Virus record (IMG/VR): IMGVR_UViG_3300003155_000119
Coordinates: 32,001-96,000 of that record
DNA length: 64,000 nt
Origin: a virus
Taxonomy: Duplodnaviria > Caudoviricetes
Direction: 5' to 3' (one strand)
A program made the position numbers and the translations under genes. The notes under the pieces were generated by a model. The model did not search any database, was not told the origin of the DNA, and saw only the letters and a list, made by a program, of their open reading frames with translations. Every line of letters begins with the position of its first letter. Positions within the stretch are counted from its first letter, which is position 1. Positions 2,042 through 16,248 of the stretch are shown one piece after another.

Positions 2042-2088
2042 AATTTATTAAATTAATTTAATAACTTTTTTAAGGAGGAAAAAATCTT

Positions 2089-5000
2089 ATGAAATTTGGC
2101 GTGAAACTAAATTAAGTCTTGCGCTTATATACCTTATCCTAATACCATAGGGGTTCTTAAATAAGAGCTAACGGGGAATGGGTGTCAATGTCACCAGAAT
2201 CCCGTGTCATGGCCGCAAGGCAGCGATGTAGAGACTAGAATATATTCGTAGGTTTGCTATTGGTACGCAAATCGAAACAGGTATAGGTGCGGTTTAAGGT
2301 CTGGCCGCATTTAAGAGATAGTCCATAGTTAATACTATGAAGAGAAATATGTAATGTTGTATTCCGTGCTAAATCTCCTATGAAGATTGGCAAGACAACA
2401 TTCCAAACTGGACAACCAGTTATTATGCTTGATACTGCAACTGCTTCCACTCTGGAAGGCGCTGCAACGACAGTCTACGCGCAGGGTTAAAAATAGCTCC
2501 ATATATAAGTGATTATATATGAAAACTGCTCTAATTGCTGGAAACTCTTATAAAAAATATAAGACAATCAGCAGCGAAGTAATTAAGAATAAAATATTTT
2601 GGGAGGCATATTGATTATGTTATTACAAATTAATTAGTTTATTCCTGAAGTAAAAGACCGTTATTTCATTTGTGACAATGGCGATTTATTTACTGATTTT
2701 GGTCAAAGAAAAATGAAAAATAGTACAAAAAATGGATATGTAAAGAACTCATTAGTCTTAAAAGATGGAACATCTAAATCATTTTTTAGACACCGTCTAG
2801 TTATGTTATGCTTTTGTCCCAACGAAAAAGCAAATGAATTACAAGTAAATCATATAGACGGAAATAAAGAAAATAATAGTATAGAAAATTTAGAATGGTG
2901 TACTAATCAAGAGAATAGAATTCATGCTGTAAAAATAGGACTTGCCGCGAGATTAATCGGTGAAGAAAATCCTGCTAGTAAATTAAAGGAAGAAGATGTG
3001 CTAGATATTATAAATGATTTATTAAATCATATTCCTTATTCTCAAATAATGAAAAAATATGAATGTTCTAAAAGTACTATTTCATCAATAAAGAATAAAA
3101 GAAACTGGTCTTATTTGACTAAAGATATTGATTTTAATTAAACGTTCAACGACTATCCTTTATGGAGTAGATTACAAGCTATTGGTAATTGAAATGGGCA
3201 GTCTCTCTTGGCGAGAGAAAGATATAGTCTAATCTCATATGTGAATATGAGCTGTCGAAAGACGCATATAGTGTAGCGAACTATATGGAATATTAATGGG
3301 ACGCGGAAATGTTCGTTTAATTGCGTGGGATGAAAAGAAAATTACTCACCGGCTCACGAATCTTAGTAATAAGATAAAGAAAAATCTCGTGAATTGCTGG
3401 GACACCCAAAATCATTTTGGGCAATCAGCAGCCAAGGGGCGCATATAAAATAAATGCGTTCAAGGTTCAACGACTATCCTTTATGGAGTAGGGCTAAGCG
3501 GCCCGAAGCGCGAGACTCCTATTTTTAGGATGAAGATATAGTCTCATCTAAGTGGATATATAAAGACTTAGTAGTTCATTAGAGAACACATAGAAATTAG
3601 CGACTTCTATGGAAGATACACTCGTTATGAGGTGAGAAAACATTAACCTTCACCGTCACCGATGCTCTTCTCAGCGCTACTGGATTTGCAATCCTGTCTG
3701 GCGCTGGATTAATTACACAAAATACTGGAACTAAAGTTCACTATCATGTAACAACTAATACAACTTGTGCAGCTACTGAAATTGATTTAACTGATGCTCT
3801 CACACCTTTTGGCACAGGTGCTCAAATTTGTGATACTGCACCTATTTATGTCATTGAAACAGAAGCAGATGGTTCTATCACTGGAACTTTCTTAACTAAC
3901 GTAACTGTTGACGTGGGTGGAAAGAAATTAAAGGGTACCTTTACAGCGGGTAAAGCTGTCACTGTTGACTATTATGTGCTAGTCGATGGTGCTGGTATTG
4001 ACGAAATTCAGATTGATGCTGAGAACTTCGCAGGATACTTCTATGTAGAAGCGGATACTTTATTCCGTCGGCAGTCTGACGGTGTTGACCTGCCCTGCAA
4101 CATCACTCTACCTAACGTTAAGATTCAGTCTAACTTCACCTTCTCTATGGCTTCAACTGGAGATCCAAGTGAACTAATGCGCTTGGCGGCTTAAATAAAA
4201 GCTGAAAAATTTAGTTCTTTAATTGCGGGAAAACCCTTAGAGCTTTTACAACTAAAGCAATATAGAAATATATTGACTGGCGAGGGTAATGACTAAGGTA
4301 TAGTAAAATCGTAAAAGATTGGGTAATCCGCAGCAAAGATTTCGTATTTGACTTTTTATAAAATATAAGATATAATTAAAATAAAAAAAGGAGAAATGAA
4401 AGAGTGGAAAAACGTATACATGACTTCATTCCAGAAATAAAAGATTATTATACAATTACTTCAGATGGATTAATATACAGTGATAATTCTGGATTAATGA
4501 AAACTAGAGATAGAGCAGGAACTGACTATCAAATAATTAATTTAAGCAAATTAGACGGAAGTAAAAGGACTTTTAGGGTTCACCGTTTAGTAATGATGGC
4601 TTTCAATCCTGTTAAAAATATGAATGAATTAGAAGTAAATCATATAGATGGAAATAAAAAAAATAATAAATTAGAAAATCTTGAATGGTGTACTGCTAGT
4701 GAAAATCAAATTCATGCTTTTAAAACTGGACTAAATAAACCAAGAAAAGGAGAAGAAAGCAATCTCTCTAAATTGACTGAAGATGATGTAAAAAAAGTAT
4801 TTGAGTTAAGAGAAAAAGGTCTTTTACAAAAAGAAATTGCTGAAATAGTTGGATGTACAAAAAGTAATATATCTTGTATTTTAAGAAAAAAGTCTTGGAA
4901 GAAATAATGTTCAACGACTATCCTTTATGGAGTAGCTCTAAGTAGAGCGAAATGGGAACTTAAAAGATATAGTCTCAACTATACTGAAAAGTATAGCAGT

Positions 5001-5237
5001 TCATAAAGAACGCATATAGATTAACGACCTATATGGAAGATATTGACATTCGATTTCACAATGGACGCCTTCCCTGGCGTTACTTATTTCAATCCTGGAC
5101 GGCAAGTTTTGTGCGCAATGCAGGTGTTGAATAACTACAACGCTGGTGCGGATACTATTGAATCTGTATTCTTACATGATGATGCTGAAGTTATTGCGGA
5201 GGCAGAGAACGATTCTGCGGAAGGCGCCGGAGGTTAA
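2089..5237 (+). CDS. Major tail tube protein, spliced from 5 exons (2089-2102, 2340-2487, 3299-3331, 3631-4170, 5046-5237), 308 aa
   Basis: RBS AAGGAGG. Exons sum to 927 nt, in frame: MKFGV/REICNVVFRAK...YAQG/GRGNVRLIAWD/GEKTLTFTVTDAL...ASTGDPS/TFDFTMDAF. Lies upstream of the tape measure gene and is followed by a terminator. Confidence 0.8.
2103..2339 (+). ncRNA. Group I intron 1 (237 nt, no ORF)
   Basis: 5' exon ends in T and the intron ends in G. Core motifs AACGGGGAA, AATCCCGTG, GTAGAGACTA, AAGAGATAGTCC. Guide TCTTGCGC pairs with junction GCGT|AAGA. Confidence 0.9.
2488..3298 (+). ncRNA. Group I intron 2 (811 nt) with HNH endonuclease
   Basis: GGT|TAA start. Core motifs AATTGCTGGAAA, AATCAGCAGC, TTCAACGACTA, AAGATATAGTCT. 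Terminal G3298 restores YAQG-GRGN. Confidence 0.9.
2617..3141 (+). CDS. Intron-encoded HNH homing endonuclease, 174 aa (TAG at 2635 read through)
   Basis: HRLV...VNHIDGNKENN...NLEWCT..EN..HA motif. RBS GGGAGG at 2601. The N-terminus IN(Q)FIPEVKDRYFI aligns with IHDFIPEIKDYYTI of the intron-4 HNH. Confidence 0.88.
3332..3630 (+). ncRNA. Group I intron 3 (about 299 nt, no ORF); junction uncertain by 1 nt
   Basis: Core motifs AATTGCTGGGA, AATCAGCAGCC, TTCAACGACTA, AAGATATAGTCT. Guide CTCACCGGCTCACG (3345-3358) pairs with CGTGGGAT|GGTGAG. Confidence 0.85.
4348..4376 (+). promoter_or_regulatory. Sigma70/sigmaA-type promoter inside intron 4
   Basis: TTGACT-N17-TATAAT followed by RBS AAAGGAG and the HNH start. 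Confidence 0.8.
4404..4907 (+). CDS. Intron-encoded HNH homing endonuclease with C-terminal HTH, 167 aa
   Basis: VHRLV...EVNHIDGNKKNN..ENLEWCT.SEN..HA motif. C-terminal LLQKEIAEIVGCTKSNIS helix-turn-helix. Confidence 0.9.
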   Translation: MEKRIHDFIPEIKDYYTITSDGLIYSDNSGLMKTRDRAGTDYQIINLSKLDGSKRTFRVHRLVMMAFNPVKNMNELEVNHIDGNKKNNKLENLEWCTASENQIHAFKTGLNKPRKGEESNLSKLTEDDVKKVFELREKGLLQKEIAEIVGCTKSNISCILRKKSWKK

Positions 5238-7482: not shown

Positions 7483-10400
7483 ATGGCTAATAATATTAGA
7501 TTTAATATAGGCTTTGATGTAGATAAGAAAGGTCTTGAAGAAATCAAGAATGAATTGAAATCTATTCAAAGCACTACAACAGAAGAATATCTAAAAATAA
7601 ATATTAATTAGACTGATTTAAATTAGGTTACTAAAGATTTAGCAGAAATTAACTATGCGGCGTCTACTGTACAAAATGCACTAGATAAAGCATTTAATGC
7701 TAAATTAGATACTTTTAATATTTAGACTTTTAATAATTATTTAAAAGATGCAGATTTGACTTTAGATGAAGTATATTCATCTTTTAGTAAGTTAGGGACG
7801 CAAGGACAAAGCGCGTTTAGAAAATTAAGTTAGTAGATTTTAACAACTAATACTTAGCTTGATAAAACTTCTACAGTATTAGATGACTTATTTTAGACTT
7901 TATCTAATACTGTAAAGTGGAATGTCGCGTCAACAGCGGTAAATGCTTTGGCGGGTCAAGTATCTTAGGCTTTTGGATACGTTAAAAATTTAGACAGTTC
8001 GTTAAATGATATTAGAATTGTTACAGGTGAGTCTGCTGAATAGATGGATGAATTTGCTCGCAAGGCTAATGATGCGGCGATTGCGTTAGGACAACAAACA
8101 ACGGAATACACGAACGCTAGTCTAATCTACAGACAATAGGGATTGGATACGGAAGAGTCCGATGTGCGTGCCAGATTAACTTTGATGACCGCCAATGTTA
8201 CTGGACAGGACGCGTAGGACGTATCAGAGTAGCTAACTGCGGTTTGGAACGGGTACCAAGTATCCGCAGAAGAGGCTGAGATATACATTGATAGGCTTGC
8301 AGTTGCGGCAGCAGCTACAGCCGCAGACCTGGAAGAACTATCCACTGGTATGTCAAGAGTAGCTTCAACTGCAAACGCAATGGGTGTGCAAGAAGAGTAG
8401 TTAGCCTCTATGCTAGCTACAATTATCTCTGTTACTCGTCAGGCACCAGAATCTGTAGGCACAGCTGCCAATACTGTCTTAACAAGAATGGCTGATATAA
8501 CCGCGGATTTAAATGACGAGGTATCTTTGGATAATTACACCAAGAAAATGAATGAACTTGGTATAAACGTCTTAGATGCTAACAATAATTTGCGCGAAAT
8601 GGGAGATGTAATCACTGAGATTGGGTCTAAATGGACAGACCTCTCAAGAGAACAACAATTAGCTTTGGCGCAAATTATTGGTGGAACTCATCAATTCAAT
8701 ACCGTCTTGGCGCTATTCGATAACTGGGACCAGTATCTTTCTACTCTTGAACAAGTGAATAATGCAGAAGGCGCACTTCAAGAGCAGCAAGATATTTATA
8801 TGGAGTCTACTAGAGCGCATTTAGATGCTTTAACCGCACAGTGGGAGGACTTATTTGATTCTCTATTGGACTCAGATTCTATTAATGGAGTAACAGATTT
8901 CTTAAGAGGATTAGTTGGATTAGTAACTAATTTAGTTGATTCTCTTGGCGGCGGTGAGGAAGTATTTATTGCTTTTGGTTCAGTTCTAACAAGAGTATTT
9001 AGTTCTTAGATTTCCGCTGGATTAAATACTTTCATTTCTAATATTCAAGTTGCGCTTTAGAATGTTTAGAATGCAAAAGATTAGTTGCAGTTAGGGCAGT
9101 CTTTAAGTGACGGGAACTATGATTCTCTTACTAATGAGATAAATCAAATGAGCGCCGCGTATCAAAAATATTCAAAATATTTAACTGAGGCGCAAAAAGA
9201 AGAAGTAAAAAGAACTATTGAATCAAGAGAAGCAATTATCACTGAAGCGCAAGCTTGGGAACAAGCAAAGAAGTCTCTTGAAGAATATTATAATACTTAT
9301 GTACCCGCAGATGATAGAGTAGGTGGAGATAATACTTAGATTATATCTGCGGCAAATTTAGATTCTTATAGTGAAGATGAGCTATTAGATATTGAGACTT
9401 CTTTGGAGAACGCCCAAGACAGATTCCGTAGGTCTAATGATAGAGCTAAAGAATTTAATAATACTATTAATCAACTGACTTAGGGACTTAAACAAAATAG
9501 TTTAAGTTTGGATGAAATCAACGAAGGCTACAGATAGGTTTATATTGAACTAGATAGAACAGAAGAAGCTGTTCAAAATTATCTAAATAATTTAGACCAA
9601 GAGTCTTAGGCATATATACAATTAAATTCTCTATTAGACCAATATAGACAATAGAGAGAAAGAGTAGTCTCAACTTATGGCGAAAGTAGAATAGGTGAAG
9701 GCTTTGCTACAGATGATAAAGCTAGAATCTCTTTATAGAATTTAATAAGAGGCTGGCAAAAAGAAACAACTAATTCAGTTACTGCCGCAGAGGAGTCATT
9801 AGATACTGTATACAATGCTTTAGCAGAAAAAAGTTCTTAGATTAATGTTTAGATGCAAAAATCTAATGAACAGGTAAAAGCTCTTTGGAAGACTTTCTCT
9901 CAACCAGAGGCAATAAACGCCTTAACAGAAGTGGTTGCGGCAAGTGGTTCTGCTTTAAGTATTTTTACCTAGATAAAATAGTTAGGTTCTATTTGGACGG
10001 ATGAAAATTTATCTGATGGTGAAAGATTTTTACAAACTTTATTTGGTATCGTCAACATTGGGGGCCAAGCTGTATCAATATTAAGCAGCATAGCAAGTAT
10101 ATCTAATGCTGCATCTGCCTTCTCCGGCATTGCTTCTGCCGTTACTTCTTTTGCCGCAGTTAATCCTATCTTAATTGGAGTGGGTGTCGCCATAGCCGCA
10201 ATCGGCGGAGTTTATGTTGCGGCAACAGATGCCGCTGAAAAATATGATGAGGCGTAGAGAAGAGCGTTTTCAGAATCTCTAAGCGCTGTAGAGGAAAATA
10301 AAACAAAAATACAAGAACTTTCTTCTTAGTTAGAGGACAATAGACAAAAGATAGAAGAAATAAATGAAGCTGGTCCATTGTCTATAACAGATGAGCAAGA

Positions 10401-13400
10401 TATAAGAAATCTATAGACTTAGAATGAATTACTTTCTATTCAAATAGATTTAGAGAAATAGAGATAGAAGGTAGCATATCAGGATGCCGCAGACACTTAT
10501 AAAGAAACTGCTCCAACAAGAAGAAAAGACTATGAGAAGGCGGCAAATGAAACTGCTTATAGCGGTCTTGATGATTATAGAAGAAACATTGGTATTGCGG
10601 CATAGGGTGAGACTAGCCTATACGATATAAAGGCGAGTGATACTTAGGGATTTAACCAGTGGCAAGAGCAAAGACTGAATGAAATAAAAGAGTATAGAGA
10701 GAAAGCCGCAAAAGCTGGTTCTGATGTAGAAAGAGCTTACTTTGAAGAGCGCGCTGATTATATGGACCAGCTCTTCCAAGACGATATCGAAAGATGGAAG
10801 TATATCAATACTAATTTCGTCGATTATTTAGGCTAGGCCGCACAAGAGGCTACAAACTATCTTGCTCTTGACTCTCAATTCCAGGACGACGAGGCGGTTA
10901 AAGAAGCGCAAGAAACTATTCGTCAATACTACGAAGCAACTGGAGTCTATCAATAGAAAGTTGCGGAACAGGTAAATGAATTAATAACGGAGAATAAAGT
11001 AGCTTGGAAAGATTTTGTTGATGATACTTAGTCTATTGATTTTAATCAAATATTTGCTCAATAGAATCCAGAACAAGTTCTATAGAGCGTATTTGGTGAT
11101 GATTTATTTGATGCAATTCAACAAAAGGCATAGGAATTAGGGTTATCCCTATATGCGTTCTTACAACCTCTAGCTGACGATTCAGGTATTATTAATCTTC
11201 AGTCTATTGCGGAATGGATTAATATAATAGCAGAAAATACTGAGTCCGCAACCGAGACCGCAGATGATTATGCTTCTAAATTAAGTTTTATAAAGACTTT
11301 ATCTTAGACAATCTCTACTTCTGGAATAAGCAGTATTACTGATGACGAAGATTTAAAACAACTACAAGAATTAGAAAGTGAATATTCTGTTCTTGCAAAT
11401 ATCCAAGATAAAAATTCTCATGATTATCTTGAAGCACTAAGATATATCCAAGAACAACTAGAAGATAATCATAGAGCGGAACTAAATAATATTAAAGATG
11501 AAGCGTCTGAAAGAGCTAAGACCGCGGCTCAGAACCTAAAAGATTTGGAAGCGCGGAAAGAGGAACTGGAAGGGTTAAATGACGCTCTATCCTAGAGTGA
11601 ATTAGACGACGTTATAGTTGATATACAGGCTAATACCAATGAGCTACAAAACGCAATTAATGACGTTATCAGCGCAGACTATGAGTTAAAAGTATCTATT
11701 AATGCGCAAGACCTAGCTTCCGATGTGTCTGATGCTTTTGATTTCGCAACAGAAATATCCAATATTGGTCAATTCATTACAGATGATTTAAAAGTGTCTG
11801 TCGATGAAATGAGACAGATTGTAAATGCTGGATATGGCGCAATGTTGATTGATGCTTAGGCCACAACAGATGGAATGGTTCAATTAAATGCGGCCCAAGT
11901 AAATGCTTTTATTGATGGAAAATAGTCTGAGGTAGAGGCGTCTCGTTAGGCTTATATTGCGCAACTAGAACAGTCATTAACCTACTTAAATGGACAAAGA
12001 GAATACATTTCTTTAGAGCTTCAAGCAGTAGAATCTGCTTTGGCCGCAAAGAATACTGCCTAGGCGCAAAGTAGTCTGTATGAATTGAGAGCTAGACAAA
12101 ATGGTTATGAACATTATGTTTAGCTATTGTCTGAACAACTGAGCGCGGAGGATGATTACAGATACTAGAGTGAGAATATCTCAGACTAGCTGAACGAGTT
12201 TAAGGCGCAATAGTCAGAGATTGCTTATCTGAATCAATAGAAAGATGAAAGTGATGCAACTACTCAATAGGCGCAAGAAGTAAAGAGAAGAATTGAAAAC
12301 CTTGAAAAATATTATAATTCACTTGTTTCTATTGGTCTAGCTACTAAACAGGCAATGTCTGGAACTGAAGTTACAGTTAAATTCTCTTCTGGTAGCCCAG
12401 TTGGTGGAGGCGGAATAGTTGATTCTGGTAATTTTGAAATGCAGAATCCGCTTGACCGCGATTAGAGTAGAGATTATGCTATTAATACCGACTTTGATAT
12501 TGGTGCGTTATTAGACGAATGGATGGGCTCCGATTGGTCTGAGGCTGGGCGGCAAGAGTTAGAAGATTTAAGAAAAGGCTTATCAGATACTTTAGCTTCT
12601 CTTGATGCACAAGCTGGTGCGCTAAGAGGAAGTATTGAAGCGCTTAAAGCTGCGAACCTTGGCGTTGATTATTAGCAAGCTGGCTCAGGTGGTAGTTCTG
12701 GAAGTAAAAGCGGAGGCTCAACACCTAACTAGAAGGAATTAGACTTATATAATGATAGGCTTGATGTCTTCGCAGCAATAAACGAAGAAATTGATAAGTA
12801 TGAAGCTGGTTTAAAAGCGTTACAAGAGGCAGAACAAAATGCTTATGGCGCTGAATACGCTAATAATTTAAATAAACAGCTTGACTTAATTAAAAAACTA
12901 AAAGAGGCGCAAGAAGAAAGACTTGAAATCGCAAAGAATCAAGAGTCTTAGCTAAAAGACGAGCTAAGCGGAATTGGTTTCACTTTTACTGACGAAGGAG
13001 TTCTTGACAGAAGCAGATTAACTGAGCTAAAGAATTTATATGACCAGGCCGCGACTGTTTATAATAATATGTCTGGTGAACAACAGCAATCAGAGTAGGG
13101 TCTTGCTCTTGAAAAACAATTAGAAGATTAGAAAGATTATATATCTTAGATAGAAACCCTAATTGGTTTGTGGGAGGAAGCGCAAAAAGAAGGTAATGAC
13201 GCAACTACATAGATTTCCTCTTATGAGCAGCAAATTATAGAAGTAATGGATAAGCTCAAGCCAGGCGAACAAATTGAGCTTTGGGAAGAGTTTAATAAAG
13301 TAATTCAAGAATTTGGCGACATTACTGATTTAGTTGATTCAAAATTAAGTGCTTTATCTGACGAGCAAGATCATCTTGCAGGAAATGACTGGATAGAAAA

Positions 13401-16248
13401 TATTAATAAACAGATTGATGCTCTTAATTTAAAGAAACTTACTTCCGTTGTTGATGCAGTAAAAGATTTAGGTTCTGTGGCTATTGATGTTAAAAAATCC
13501 TCAAAAGATTTTAAAGACTTAATGAACAGCTTAAAAGAGCTAGCTAAATAGAATGATAAGTTGGCGGCCTTTGATATAAATATTGACCCTGACCAAATTA
13601 ATGCTAGTGCAGATGGAATAAAATATATATCAGATACTTTAATGCAGCTATTTAATGCCTACAATAGCATGGAGGCTGGCTAGCAGGATTTAAATTTATC
13701 AAAGACAATAGGAGATATACTTGGAGCAGCTTCTGGAAATATCTTAAGTATAATTTCTTTAGCAGTAGATGTAATAAATATTATAACTAATCTTGCAGAT
13801 ATACTACATAATATAAGAGAATAGATTATTGAATTGAGAATTGAAAAATTTAATAAACCAGTTGATGTTACTCTTGATTTATATGATATGCAACAGCAAT
13901 GGAATGAATTTAGGCGGCAAGTGATAGATGATTTAGCTGAAGATGACTTTGTCGGCAAGATGAAACAAAGTTTACGCGAAATTAAACAATACTATGAAGG
14001 ATTAGACTTTAGCATTGGAGATTCATTATTTGATGAAGACAGTATTAATGGAAGCATGAATTTAATGGATACTTTAAGTTCTCATCTTGGTCAAATTATG
14101 CAAGAAATTCAAGTCATGATGAGCGGAGAAAAATCTGATATATATGGAGATCATATGCAAGATGCTTTAGATGACCTTAAAACATATATGACTTCACTTC
14201 AGGATGCATTAATTGATGTTGCGGAACTAGAGGACGAAATATATCAAGCATACTTAGATGGATGGGACGATATACAAGACGGACTCCAAGATTAGTTAGA
14301 TGAGTATGACAGAATTATGAACGAAATAGAGCATAATAAGAATATTCTATCTATGCTTTATGGAGACGACGCTTATGACCAAATGAACCAATTCTATGAG
14401 CTAGAAGAGAAAGCGAATAGTGGGCGTTTGCAGTATTTGACTTAGACGGTAGCCTACTGGGAACAAGTACGAGCAGAGATGGAAGCTTCTGGAGAAACAA
14501 GCGGAGAAGCATGGGATAAAGTAGTCCAAGCGCAAAAAGATGCGCAAGAAGAATTGAATGCGGCTTTGGAAGAAGCAATTCAGACAATCATTGATAAATA
14601 CTAGAATACCATAGCTGGCATATTTAATGACATGACTGATAAACTAACTGGCGGCATGGGGCTAGATTATATAAGCGATTAGTGGGATTTAATAAATCAA
14701 AGAGCTGATAAATATTTAGATGATGTTAATGCAGCTTATGCAATATCTGAATTGCAAGCAAAAGTTCAGGATGCAATCAATAAGAATGACGGAAACGTAG
14801 AAGCCCAAGAGCAAATCAAAGATTTGATGGACGAGCAATTATCTTATTTGCAAGATAAAGAAAATTTAACTCAATATGACGTAGAGAGAGCTGAAAAGCT
14901 ACTTGATATTGAATTAAAACGTATTGCACTATAGAATGCACAACAGAACTAGACCTCTATGAGATTGCGGCGGGACGCGAATGGAAACTATTCATACGAA
15001 TTTGTGGCTGATGAAGATGCCGTCTCGTCAGCGGAACAAGACCTGGCCGCAGCTGAGAATGAGCTATATAACTTTGACAAAGACCAGTATAATTAGAATT
15101 TGCAAGAGATTTTTTAGATGTATCAAGAGTACAATTAGAAAGTTCAAGAAATAGCTTCTGATAATACTTTGTCAGAGGAAGAGCGTTAGAAATATATATT
15201 AATGTTAAATGAGGAATACTAGAATTAGCTTACTGCATTAGTGCAAGATAATGAAACTATTCGTCAGAATTTAACTCAATCTGCTTTGGCCGCGTATGCT
15301 GAACTGTATGGACTAAGTAAAGATGAGTTTATTAATATGACAGAAGAATAGAAAGAAGCATTTATGTCTAATTTAGTTGAAACATGGAATAGCGGACTAC
15401 AATAGATGGCTGATGCTATTGCTGGAGAAGGTGGCTTTGAGAGTATAGCTAATGAGGCGCTAGAAAAAATTAAAGAAGCTCAAGATGCTTATAACGAATC
15501 TATTGAATAGACAAAAGAAGATATTGATGGACTAGATTTTACAGATTTTTAGACTTCTATTGATAATATATTAGCTACTACCGAGTAGACTATCGCATCA
15601 AATGAATCTCTAATTAATAGCTATAAGTAGGAGGCATCTCAATTAATTTAGACCAATCAATAGGCTCAAGAATATTTGGCTACTTTGCAGGCTCAAAATG
15701 AAGCAATGTATAAATAGATTGCACTAGCACAATAGTTGTATGCACAAAACGCGGCCGGAACAACTGAGGATGAATCGGCTCCCGGGTGGTTTGACGCCTT
15801 GGTTAATATAGCAGCACCAGGAGGACTAATTGGTAATATAATTACAGGCGGAGGCGTGTCAGATTCTTTATGGGAGGGAATTCAAAATTGGTTTGGATTC
15901 GACACAGGCGGATATACAGGGGACTGGAACGATAATAAAGGAAGACTTGCGGTCTTGCATGAAAAAGAACTAGTATTAAATAAAGATGATACTGAGAATA
16001 TTCTTTCTACAGTTGACATAGTTAGAGGAATATCTGATTCTATTTCAGATAATTTATCTGCTTTGGCCGCATCTTAGACACCAATTCTTTCAAACCCGTT
16101 GCCGCAAGAGAAAGAACCCGATACTTTGCAGCAAGAAGTTCATATTACGGCAGAGTTCCCGAACGCAACAGATAGAGACGAAATTATGGCGGCTTTCGAC
16201 AATTTAGTTAATGTTGCTTCCTAGAGAATTATGACTATTAAAAAATAA
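7483..16248 (+). CDS. Tail tape measure protein, about 2921 aa, many TAG codons
   Basis: Six track fragments (8410, 9085, 13246, 13834, 14752, 15736) share one frame and each ends at TAG. Tape-measure-type motifs ASLIYRQ(Q)GL, TRQAPESVGTA and C-terminal FDTGGYTG...LHEKELVLN. Long helical composition. Confidence 0.88.

Follow-up and report, generated by a model that had tools for sequence, protein, structure and literature searches.

Several group I introns within one phage gene have been described before. The gene orf142 of Staphylococcus phage Twort, identified only later as a tail tube gene, carries three self-splicing ones (Landthaler and Shub 1999, PMC22036; PMC10136302, PMC11878797); a 23-nucleotide (nt) exon of that gene lies between two similar IA2 introns, and exon skipping has been shown there (PMC10136302, PMC11878797). 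In a Zeta-group crAss-like phage (cMAG OLRF01000054), the gene for the major capsid protein is broken up into five pieces (Yutin et al. 2021, PMC7886860), and group I introns with HNH endonucleases of the I-HmuI type are found in Bacillus phages SPO1 and SP82 and in DNA polymerase and terminase genes of Bastillevirinae, with up to three introns (PMC11878797). Here, a tail tube gene was analysed (2089-5237, + strand) that lies in a 64-kb stretch of viral DNA, called the window throughout and corresponding to positions 32001-96000 of a 113.8-kb IMG/VR virus record (~73% complete). The gene belongs to a phage that appears to read TAG as glutamine (Gln), and it is very probably split by four mobile group I introns.

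The locus closely resembles Twort orf142 and is a somewhat more extreme instance of an already known phenomenon. Both are tail tube genes with several phage IA-like introns and with a tiny internal exon, of 23 nt in Twort and probably 32 nt in the window, between similar introns. Unlike in Twort, four introns rather than three are present along with a 14-nt first exon, the product is a siphovirus tube of the YomU/SPR type instead of a myovirus tube, and two introns contain HNH endonuclease genes, in a phage with apparent TAG recoding. The crAss-like capsid gene is likewise a gene for an abundant virion protein in a gut phage of a recoding-prone lineage, with four intervening segments that bear group I hallmarks; that case concerns a Crassvirales capsid, whereas the present one concerns the tube gene of an SPbeta-like, Firmicutes-type phage, and here the ribozyme cores themselves were checked, beyond the intron-encoded proteins. 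The SPO1/SP82 and Bastillevirinae introns share with those of the window the endonuclease family, a number of two or three introns per conserved gene and an open reading frame (ORF) in a peripheral ribozyme loop, but they occupy mainly DNA-metabolism and terminase genes rather than a structural tail gene. An earlier note on this DNA had held that phage introns are usually one or few per gene; to take the case as unprecedented on that ground is too strong in view of the three introns of Twort and the five capsid fragments of the crAss-like phage. Recoded stops within an intron endonuclease are known from Agate phages (bioRxiv 10.1101/2021.08.26.457843). Literature searches on YomU, on four group I introns, on recoding combined with introns and on non-canonical wobble pairs yielded nothing useful. 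To our knowledge, no introns have been reported in the SPbeta/SPR tail tube gene.

Exon collinearity and identity of the spliced product

The coding segments of the gene were delimited as follows.

2072..2078, + strand: ribosome binding site AAGGAGG, read from the sequence, with a 10-nt gap to the ATG
2089..2102, + strand: exon 1, 14 nt (MKFG and the GT of Val5), fitting the invariant MKFGVRE N-terminus of homologs; RNA-library contigs join 2102 to 2340
2340..2487, + strand: exon 2, 148 nt, matching phrog_2729 profile positions 8-46, collinear with homologs
3299..3330, + strand: exon 3, a micro-exon of probably 32 nt (GRGNVRLIAW and GA; 33 nt, to 3331, in the alternative); homologs read GGRGNxRLIAWEGEK, with W64-K68 invariant
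3630..4170, + strand: exon 4, probably 541 nt, matching phrog_2729 (1.1e-26) at profile positions 58-223
5046..5237, + strand: exon 5, 192 nt including the TAA stop, continuing GDPS/TFDFTMDAFPG, collinear with homologs

Joined, the five exons make up 927 nt, or 29% of the 3149-nt locus, and encode 308 amino acids (aa) without an internal stop. The joined protein matches uninterrupted homologs of 300-315 aa (typically ~305) from end to end and aligns with them without gaps over each junction. Among 80 related IMG/VR loci, 69 contain an uninterrupted tube gene, seen as one tblastn segment from residue 1. The earlier note had rebuilt a 308-aa ORF from five exons, had put the intron share of the locus at about 70% and had made its reading depend on collinearity with intron-less homologs; all of this was borne out. 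Its exon sizes (14, 148, 33, 540 and 192 nt) stand for exons 1, 2 and 5, while 33 + 540 nt is less likely than 32 + 541 nt for exons 3 and 4. Exon 3, which it had counted as 11 codons, is indeed a very short internal exon, more likely of 32 nt given that Glu65 is invariant in 30 homologs.

The spliced product is a siphovirus tail tube protein of the SPbeta/SPR type. The label of major tail tube that the earlier note had given it is sound because of family membership, tail-module neighbours, a fold match and the annotation of homologs. A search with exon 4 found 3948 homologs, and the precomputed annotation of all 120 listed contained PF27173 (YomU_Tube); no PF27173 match was obtained in a search with a local Pfam copy. 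Exons 2 and 4 match phrog_2729 in collinear order. Neighbours of the homologs carry YonB, YomW, YomV, YomO and a PhageMin_Tail tape measure, and the layout of the window is the same: downstream of the tube gene are two ORFs (455 and 206 aa) and then a 2921-aa ORF (7483-16248), the counterpart of which in locus L002 carries PF10145 (PhageMin_Tail), so that the tube gene lies upstream of the tape measure gene. (L-numbers denote related loci, P-numbers database proteins and X-numbers sequencing runs.) The GenBank entries of homologs from Bacillus phages name them tail tube or major tail protein.

For structure prediction, the intron-free homolog P0003 (75% identical) was modelled. An AlphaFold run on a shallow 30-sequence alignment (predicted local distance difference test, pLDDT, 53) was replaced by a run on a more diverse alignment (pLDDT 81). 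In Foldseek, this model matched the SPR tail tube (8xkn, E 2.6e-11; 8ygm, E 5.6e-11; template modelling score 0.69-0.70), and further matches were the tube proteins of YSD1, Chi and JBD30, and 9jgh; the structural check that the earlier note had proposed thus agreed with its label. PDB sequence searches gave only marginal tube matches (E 0.03-0.35), and the tube protein of this phage shares fold and Pfam family with the SPbeta/SPR tail tube (8xkn, 8ygm; with DSR2, e.g., 8zc9) at about 19% sequence identity. The PDB matches of the model include SPR tube chains from DSR2 complexes (8ygc, 8zc9). The SPR tail tube protein triggers the defence NADase DSR2. The tube homolog of phage Phass-1 (OQ749652.1, L086:3001-4617) is 538 aa long; an intron was considered as the source of the extra length and rejected, the insert being a roughly 250-residue protein domain between N- and C-terminal tube segments.

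Group I introns, their predicted endonucleases and insertion sites

The four segments between the exons are all group I introns, of the phage IA-like type; they are listed below together with the two ORFs that they contain.

2103..2339, + strand: intron 1, 237 nt, group I, no ORF; P1 with U2102.G2121, ends in G2339, P10 AAGA/UCUU
2488..3298, + strand: intron 2, 811 nt, group I with endonuclease ORF; split RF00028 matches, weak P1 with U2487.G2496, ends in G3298
3331..3629, + strand (probable ends): intron 3, 299 nt, group I, no ORF; RF00028 at 81.9 bits over the full model; 3' end ...GUUAUG resembles those of introns 2 and 4
4171..5045, + strand: intron 4, 875 nt, group I with endonuclease ORF; P1 CCAAGU/GCUUGG with U4170.G4181, ends in G5045, P10 CAUU/AAUG
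2617..3141, + strand: predicted HNH homing endonuclease ORF in intron 2, 174 aa; PF13392 (HNH_3) 3.2e-11, phrog_59 8e-39
4404..4907, + strand: predicted HNH homing endonuclease ORF in intron 4, 167 aa, GTG start, ribosome binding site AAAGGAG; PF13392 9.5e-12, phrog_59 1.8e-43

Matches to the Rfam covariance model RF00028 were assessed against a threshold of 50 bits, which intron 3 exceeded over the full length of the model. In the two introns with ORFs the matches were split around the ORF: a sub-threshold pair at 2536-2621 (P4-P6, 31.6 bits) and 3147-3251 (P7-P9, 28.6 bits) in intron 2, and partial matches at 4224-4332 and 4832-4996 (14.8 and 31.8 bits) in intron 4. The ORF-less, 329-nt intron at the intron 4 site of L002, 99% identical to intron 4 in its 5' part, matched the whole model at 70.8 bits. 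Each of the four segments has P/Q/R/S-like core motifs, as seen in the sequence and in the Rfam alignments; the R-like and S-like motifs of intron 1 are GUAGAGACUA and AAGAGAUAGUCC. Guide pairings (P1 and P10) were seen at the junctions of introns 1, 3 and 4. The guide of intron 3, CUCACC-GG-CUCACG (3345-3358), pairs with GGUGAG in exon 4 (3631-3636) and with CGUGGG in exon 3 (3324-3329). The P1 of intron 2 is weak, and a clear P10 pairing was not found in its sequence. With intron 3 placed as above, each intron ends in G (omega-G: G2339, G3298, G3629 and G5045). A 27-nt block (GUUCAACGACUAUCCUUUAUGGAGUAG) is identical in introns 2, 3 and 4, the 3' ends of which are also similar, and the P3-P6 region is common to introns 2 and 3.

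Intron 1 was counted as a group I intron because of its U.G splice-site pair, its omega-G, compensatory changes and the metatranscriptome contigs described below. Its homologs occupy the same site in six relatives (site 1 in the following list), and the covariation of the family (5 sequences, those of the window and four other lineages) comprised 53 predicted pairs, 15 of them changed on both sides, with the splice-site U.G invariant. Taken together, the Rfam scores, split matches, U.G pairs and covariation uphold the earlier note in its count of four group I introns, and the core motifs and the guides that it had described were found. The covariance-model check that it had suggested was positive for intron 3, gave split partial matches for introns 2 and 4, and fell short for intron 1.

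Introns 2 and 4 are predicted to encode I-HmuI-like HNH homing endonucleases. The ORF of intron 4 matches I-HmuI (PDB 1u3e) at 3.4e-9, and weak helix-turn-helix matches were found besides HNH_3. The ORF of intron 2 contains an in-frame TAG at codon 7 (2635-2637), here read as Gln; the two ORFs are 44% identical in an alignment that runs across this TAG.

In late genes of the phage, TAG most likely encodes Gln, because the residues in long ORFs nearly double when TAG is read as sense (from 13.7k to 24.9k, mostly in the + strand late arm) and because the CAG of a conserved YAQGG motif in the window is replaced by TAG in L002. The source of the DNA is best explained as an SPbeta-like siphophage of roughly 150 kb from an animal gut. 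The nearest named phage, Phass-1, is filed as 'Caudoviricetes code 15 clade'. In a DNA search of GenBank phages, intron cores and endonuclease genes were the sole matches, and the exons had no close relative. In-frame TAG is common in the + strand late genes (window 1-37200), with 88 in the 2921-aa ORF, and the - strand replication genes (window 37500-64000) are almost free of it. No tRNA genes, suppressor or other, were found in the window or in the whole 113.8-kb record.

Across the window and its relatives, at least seven intron sites were found in the gene family.

Site 1, after nt 14: window; L002, L008, L044, L047, L052, L108
Site 2, G54/G55: window
Site 3a, within the E65 codon: window; 3' junction also in L113
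Site 3b, after G66: L003, L008, L023, L063, L065, L066, L069, L072, L073
Site 3c, after E67: L108-L112
Site 4, S245/T246: window; L002, L008, L044, L047, L108
Site 5, near residue 256: L072

The site-3c intron of close relatives (L108:1991-2758) contains a 255-aa Cys-rich ORF that is unrelated to the HNH_3 endonucleases of the window and has no precomputed Pfam match.

Joined exons in RNA libraries and the ends of intron 3

RNA runs were examined as Logan contigs; matching contigs were 90-99% alike to the window and represent relatives. In run X6 (feces metatranscriptome), a single 1049-nt contig consists of the equivalents of 2000-2102, 2340-2487, 3299-3330 and 3630-4170. In run X4 (chicken gut metatranscriptome), the upstream contig stops at 2102, and two paths go on from it, one with intron 1 (depth 83) and one in which 2340 directly follows 2102 (depth 180); the two merge in exon 2, which runs straight into exon 3 and then exon 4. 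A separate 269-nt contig of this run (depth 37) corresponds to an intron 2 without ORF; it begins at 2490 and stops precisely at 3298, as expected for the free excised intron. RNA-library contigs thus show the exons joined at introns 1 and 2 in ~90%-identical relatives, a result that intron-free strains could give as well. Contigs of run X13 (run type not on record) cross the exon-intron boundaries at all four sites in a relative that is roughly 95% alike. For the copy in the window, self-splicing is predicted: the primary transcript would have to lose four introns by guanosine-initiated self-splicing to give a 927-nt mRNA and a 308-aa tube protein.

Given the guide pairings, the bases to be assigned at the ends of intron 3 are A3330, U3331 and A3630. 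A 5' site after A3330 with an intron ending in G3629 gives Glu65, and a 5' site after U3331 with an intron ending in A3630 gives Asp65. The first placement (3331-3629; exons 3 and 4 of 32 + 541 nt) is probably correct, because W64-E65-G66-E67-K68 is invariant in the 30 homologs, because L002 (intron-free at this site) and RNA-library contigs read GGGA/AGGTGA or GGGAGGGC, because the R and S core blocks with P7 (the guanosine-binding helix) are the same in intron 3 as in the G-ending introns 2 and 4, and because L113 has the same 3' junction (...CGTTATG/AGGTGAG). The second (33 + 540 nt) is unlikely. A 20-nt exon 3, with the 5' site after 3318 as in the Rfam P1 alignment, was rejected since it deletes the conserved LIAW residues.

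In the preferred placement, the frame-keeping 5' site follows A3330, opposite G3352; the U.G alternative, U3331, needs an A-ending intron. A U before the 5' splice site is near-universal among group I introns. At site 3b (L069, L072 and L073) and site 3c (L108-L112), too, an A necessarily precedes the 5' splice site of the intron. This A lies opposite a guide G within an otherwise continuous P1 in the window (3330-3352) and in L108 (L108:1772-1812), and is unpaired in the fold of L069 (L069:2928-2955). Because coding constraints and the intron-final G force A at three insertion sites, it is tentatively suggested that some phage IA-like introns in this gene family cut after A instead of U; if true, such ribozymes would define the cleavage site without the U.G wobble. 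The site-3b introns of L063, L065 and L066 apparently have G before the 5' splice site.

Intron 3 might otherwise be spliced at both canonical positions, after U3331 (U.G with G3351) and after G3629. One extra base would then be left in the message (GAU AGG UGA, a stop), the tube copy would be defective or would depend on a minor alternative splice, and the major exon 3/4 product would be other than ...UGGGAAGGUGAG.... U3331.G3351 is the sole true wobble next to the P1 helix CGUGGG/CUCACG, G3629 fits the ...AUG and ...UUG ends of introns 2 and 4, and a further copy of intron 3 with its 5' junction was not found for comparison (searches for the 15-nt guide in IMG/VR and for a gapped junction pattern in JGI metagenome contigs returned chance matches only). 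Such splicing is nevertheless improbable: elsewhere the gene is intact and evidently constrained, the relative in run X13 has this intron 3 as well, with ~96% identity, and the introns at sites 3b and 3c force A without any other reading, so that this intron group seems tolerant of bases other than U.

Mobility, rival explanations and significance

Occupancy was compared across the relatives, as the earlier note had recommended, and the sites filled differ even among close ones. In L108, the exon 4 of which is 96% identical to that of the window, sites 1, 3c and 4 are filled; in L002, site 1 and, with an ORF-less intron, site 4; in L003, site 3b only; and L113 lacks an intron at site 4. Between genomes that share 89-96% identity in exon 4, the copies of intron 1 are 99% identical. 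Mean conservation at the four sites of the window is 0.86, compared with 0.53 at random positions (p about 2e-4). Because occupancy is variable, introns can be more alike than exons and the sites lie in conserved motifs, the pattern is read from these comparisons as the footprint of homing selfish elements that target conserved sequence, and not as that of a conserved regulator. Four phage IA-like introns would have invaded the tube gene at conserved codons (V5, G54/G55, E65 and S245/T246), and the HNH endonucleases of introns 2 and 4 presumably spread them between co-infecting relatives. On this account the introns would be selfish passengers that are tolerated because they splice.

The earlier note had proposed that the four splicing events act as a GTP/Mg-sensitive delay on tail assembly, in effect a selected timer of tube synthesis. 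Tube protein cannot indeed be made before all four introns have been removed, the P1 of intron 1 overlaps codons 4-5 just past the start codon, where translation and splicing could interfere, and the gene is a late one required in high copy number. A selected timer is nonetheless very unlikely: the gene is free of introns in 69 of the 80 relatives, and the subset of sites filled varies among close ones; certain intron segments show much greater similarity between genomes than the exons do, a sign of recent horizontal spread; two of the introns bear homing endonucleases; and insertion is at conserved targets, as is the pattern in homing. Least likely of all, the four-intron state could be an assembly mosaic of strains with one to three introns each, in keeping with the highly polymorphic occupancy among near relatives, but in the X13 relative (depth 4.8-7.3) a contig spanning exon 1-intron 1-exon 2-intron 2 is continued by intron 2-exon 3-intron 3-exon 4 and then by exon 4-intron 4 (ORF-less), all four sites being filled, and exons 2 and 3 are so short that single reads or read pairs link adjacent introns.

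Several points weigh against a tube gene split by four spliced introns. The window comes from a metagenome-assembled viral contig, so that a strain mosaic is conceivable in principle for the four-intron combination. The RF00028 match of intron 1 is weak (12.9 bits, E=7). Intron 3 cannot combine a U before its 5' site with a 3' G while frame and WEGEK are kept. The joined RNA contigs derive from ~90%-alike relatives whose DNA may simply be intron-free, and the joints of introns 3 and 4 are without intron-containing RNA of the same strain; among the listed RNA-run joints none spans intron 4, and the listed RNA cover of the 5' part of intron 3 is nil, both being uninformative.

Within the 64-kb window, all RF00028 matches are confined to the tail tube gene. 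A second intron-rich late gene was observed about 8-10 kb upstream of the window start (L114:1-3216, equal to G000:C1:21505-24720). It contains three ORF-less RF00028 matches above threshold (92.2, 83.1 and 59.8 bits) within 1.1 kb (G000:C1:23005-24105), just downstream of a GIY-YIG endonuclease ORF (L114:747-1535), and its exon fragments weakly match a terminase large subunit (phrog_5909, 1.4e-6). The 113.8-kb record thus holds at least seven group I introns, spread over two late genes.

For annotation, the locus means that standard gene callers fragment the tube gene in TAG-recoded gut phages; database proteins such as P0001, P0002 and P0005 correspond in reality to one exon or to a pair of exons. 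The unusual 5' splice site of intron 3 poses a small testable question for ribozyme biochemistry. The gene itself is a well-delimited case of a phage structural gene extremely loaded with introns: four ribozymes lie in a 927-nt frame, and two exons have 14 and, as preferred here, 32 nt. Its relatives form a natural series from zero to four introns over at least seven sites, which is useful for the study of homing-site choice, of intron gain and loss, and of how neighbouring ribozymes fold without exon skipping.

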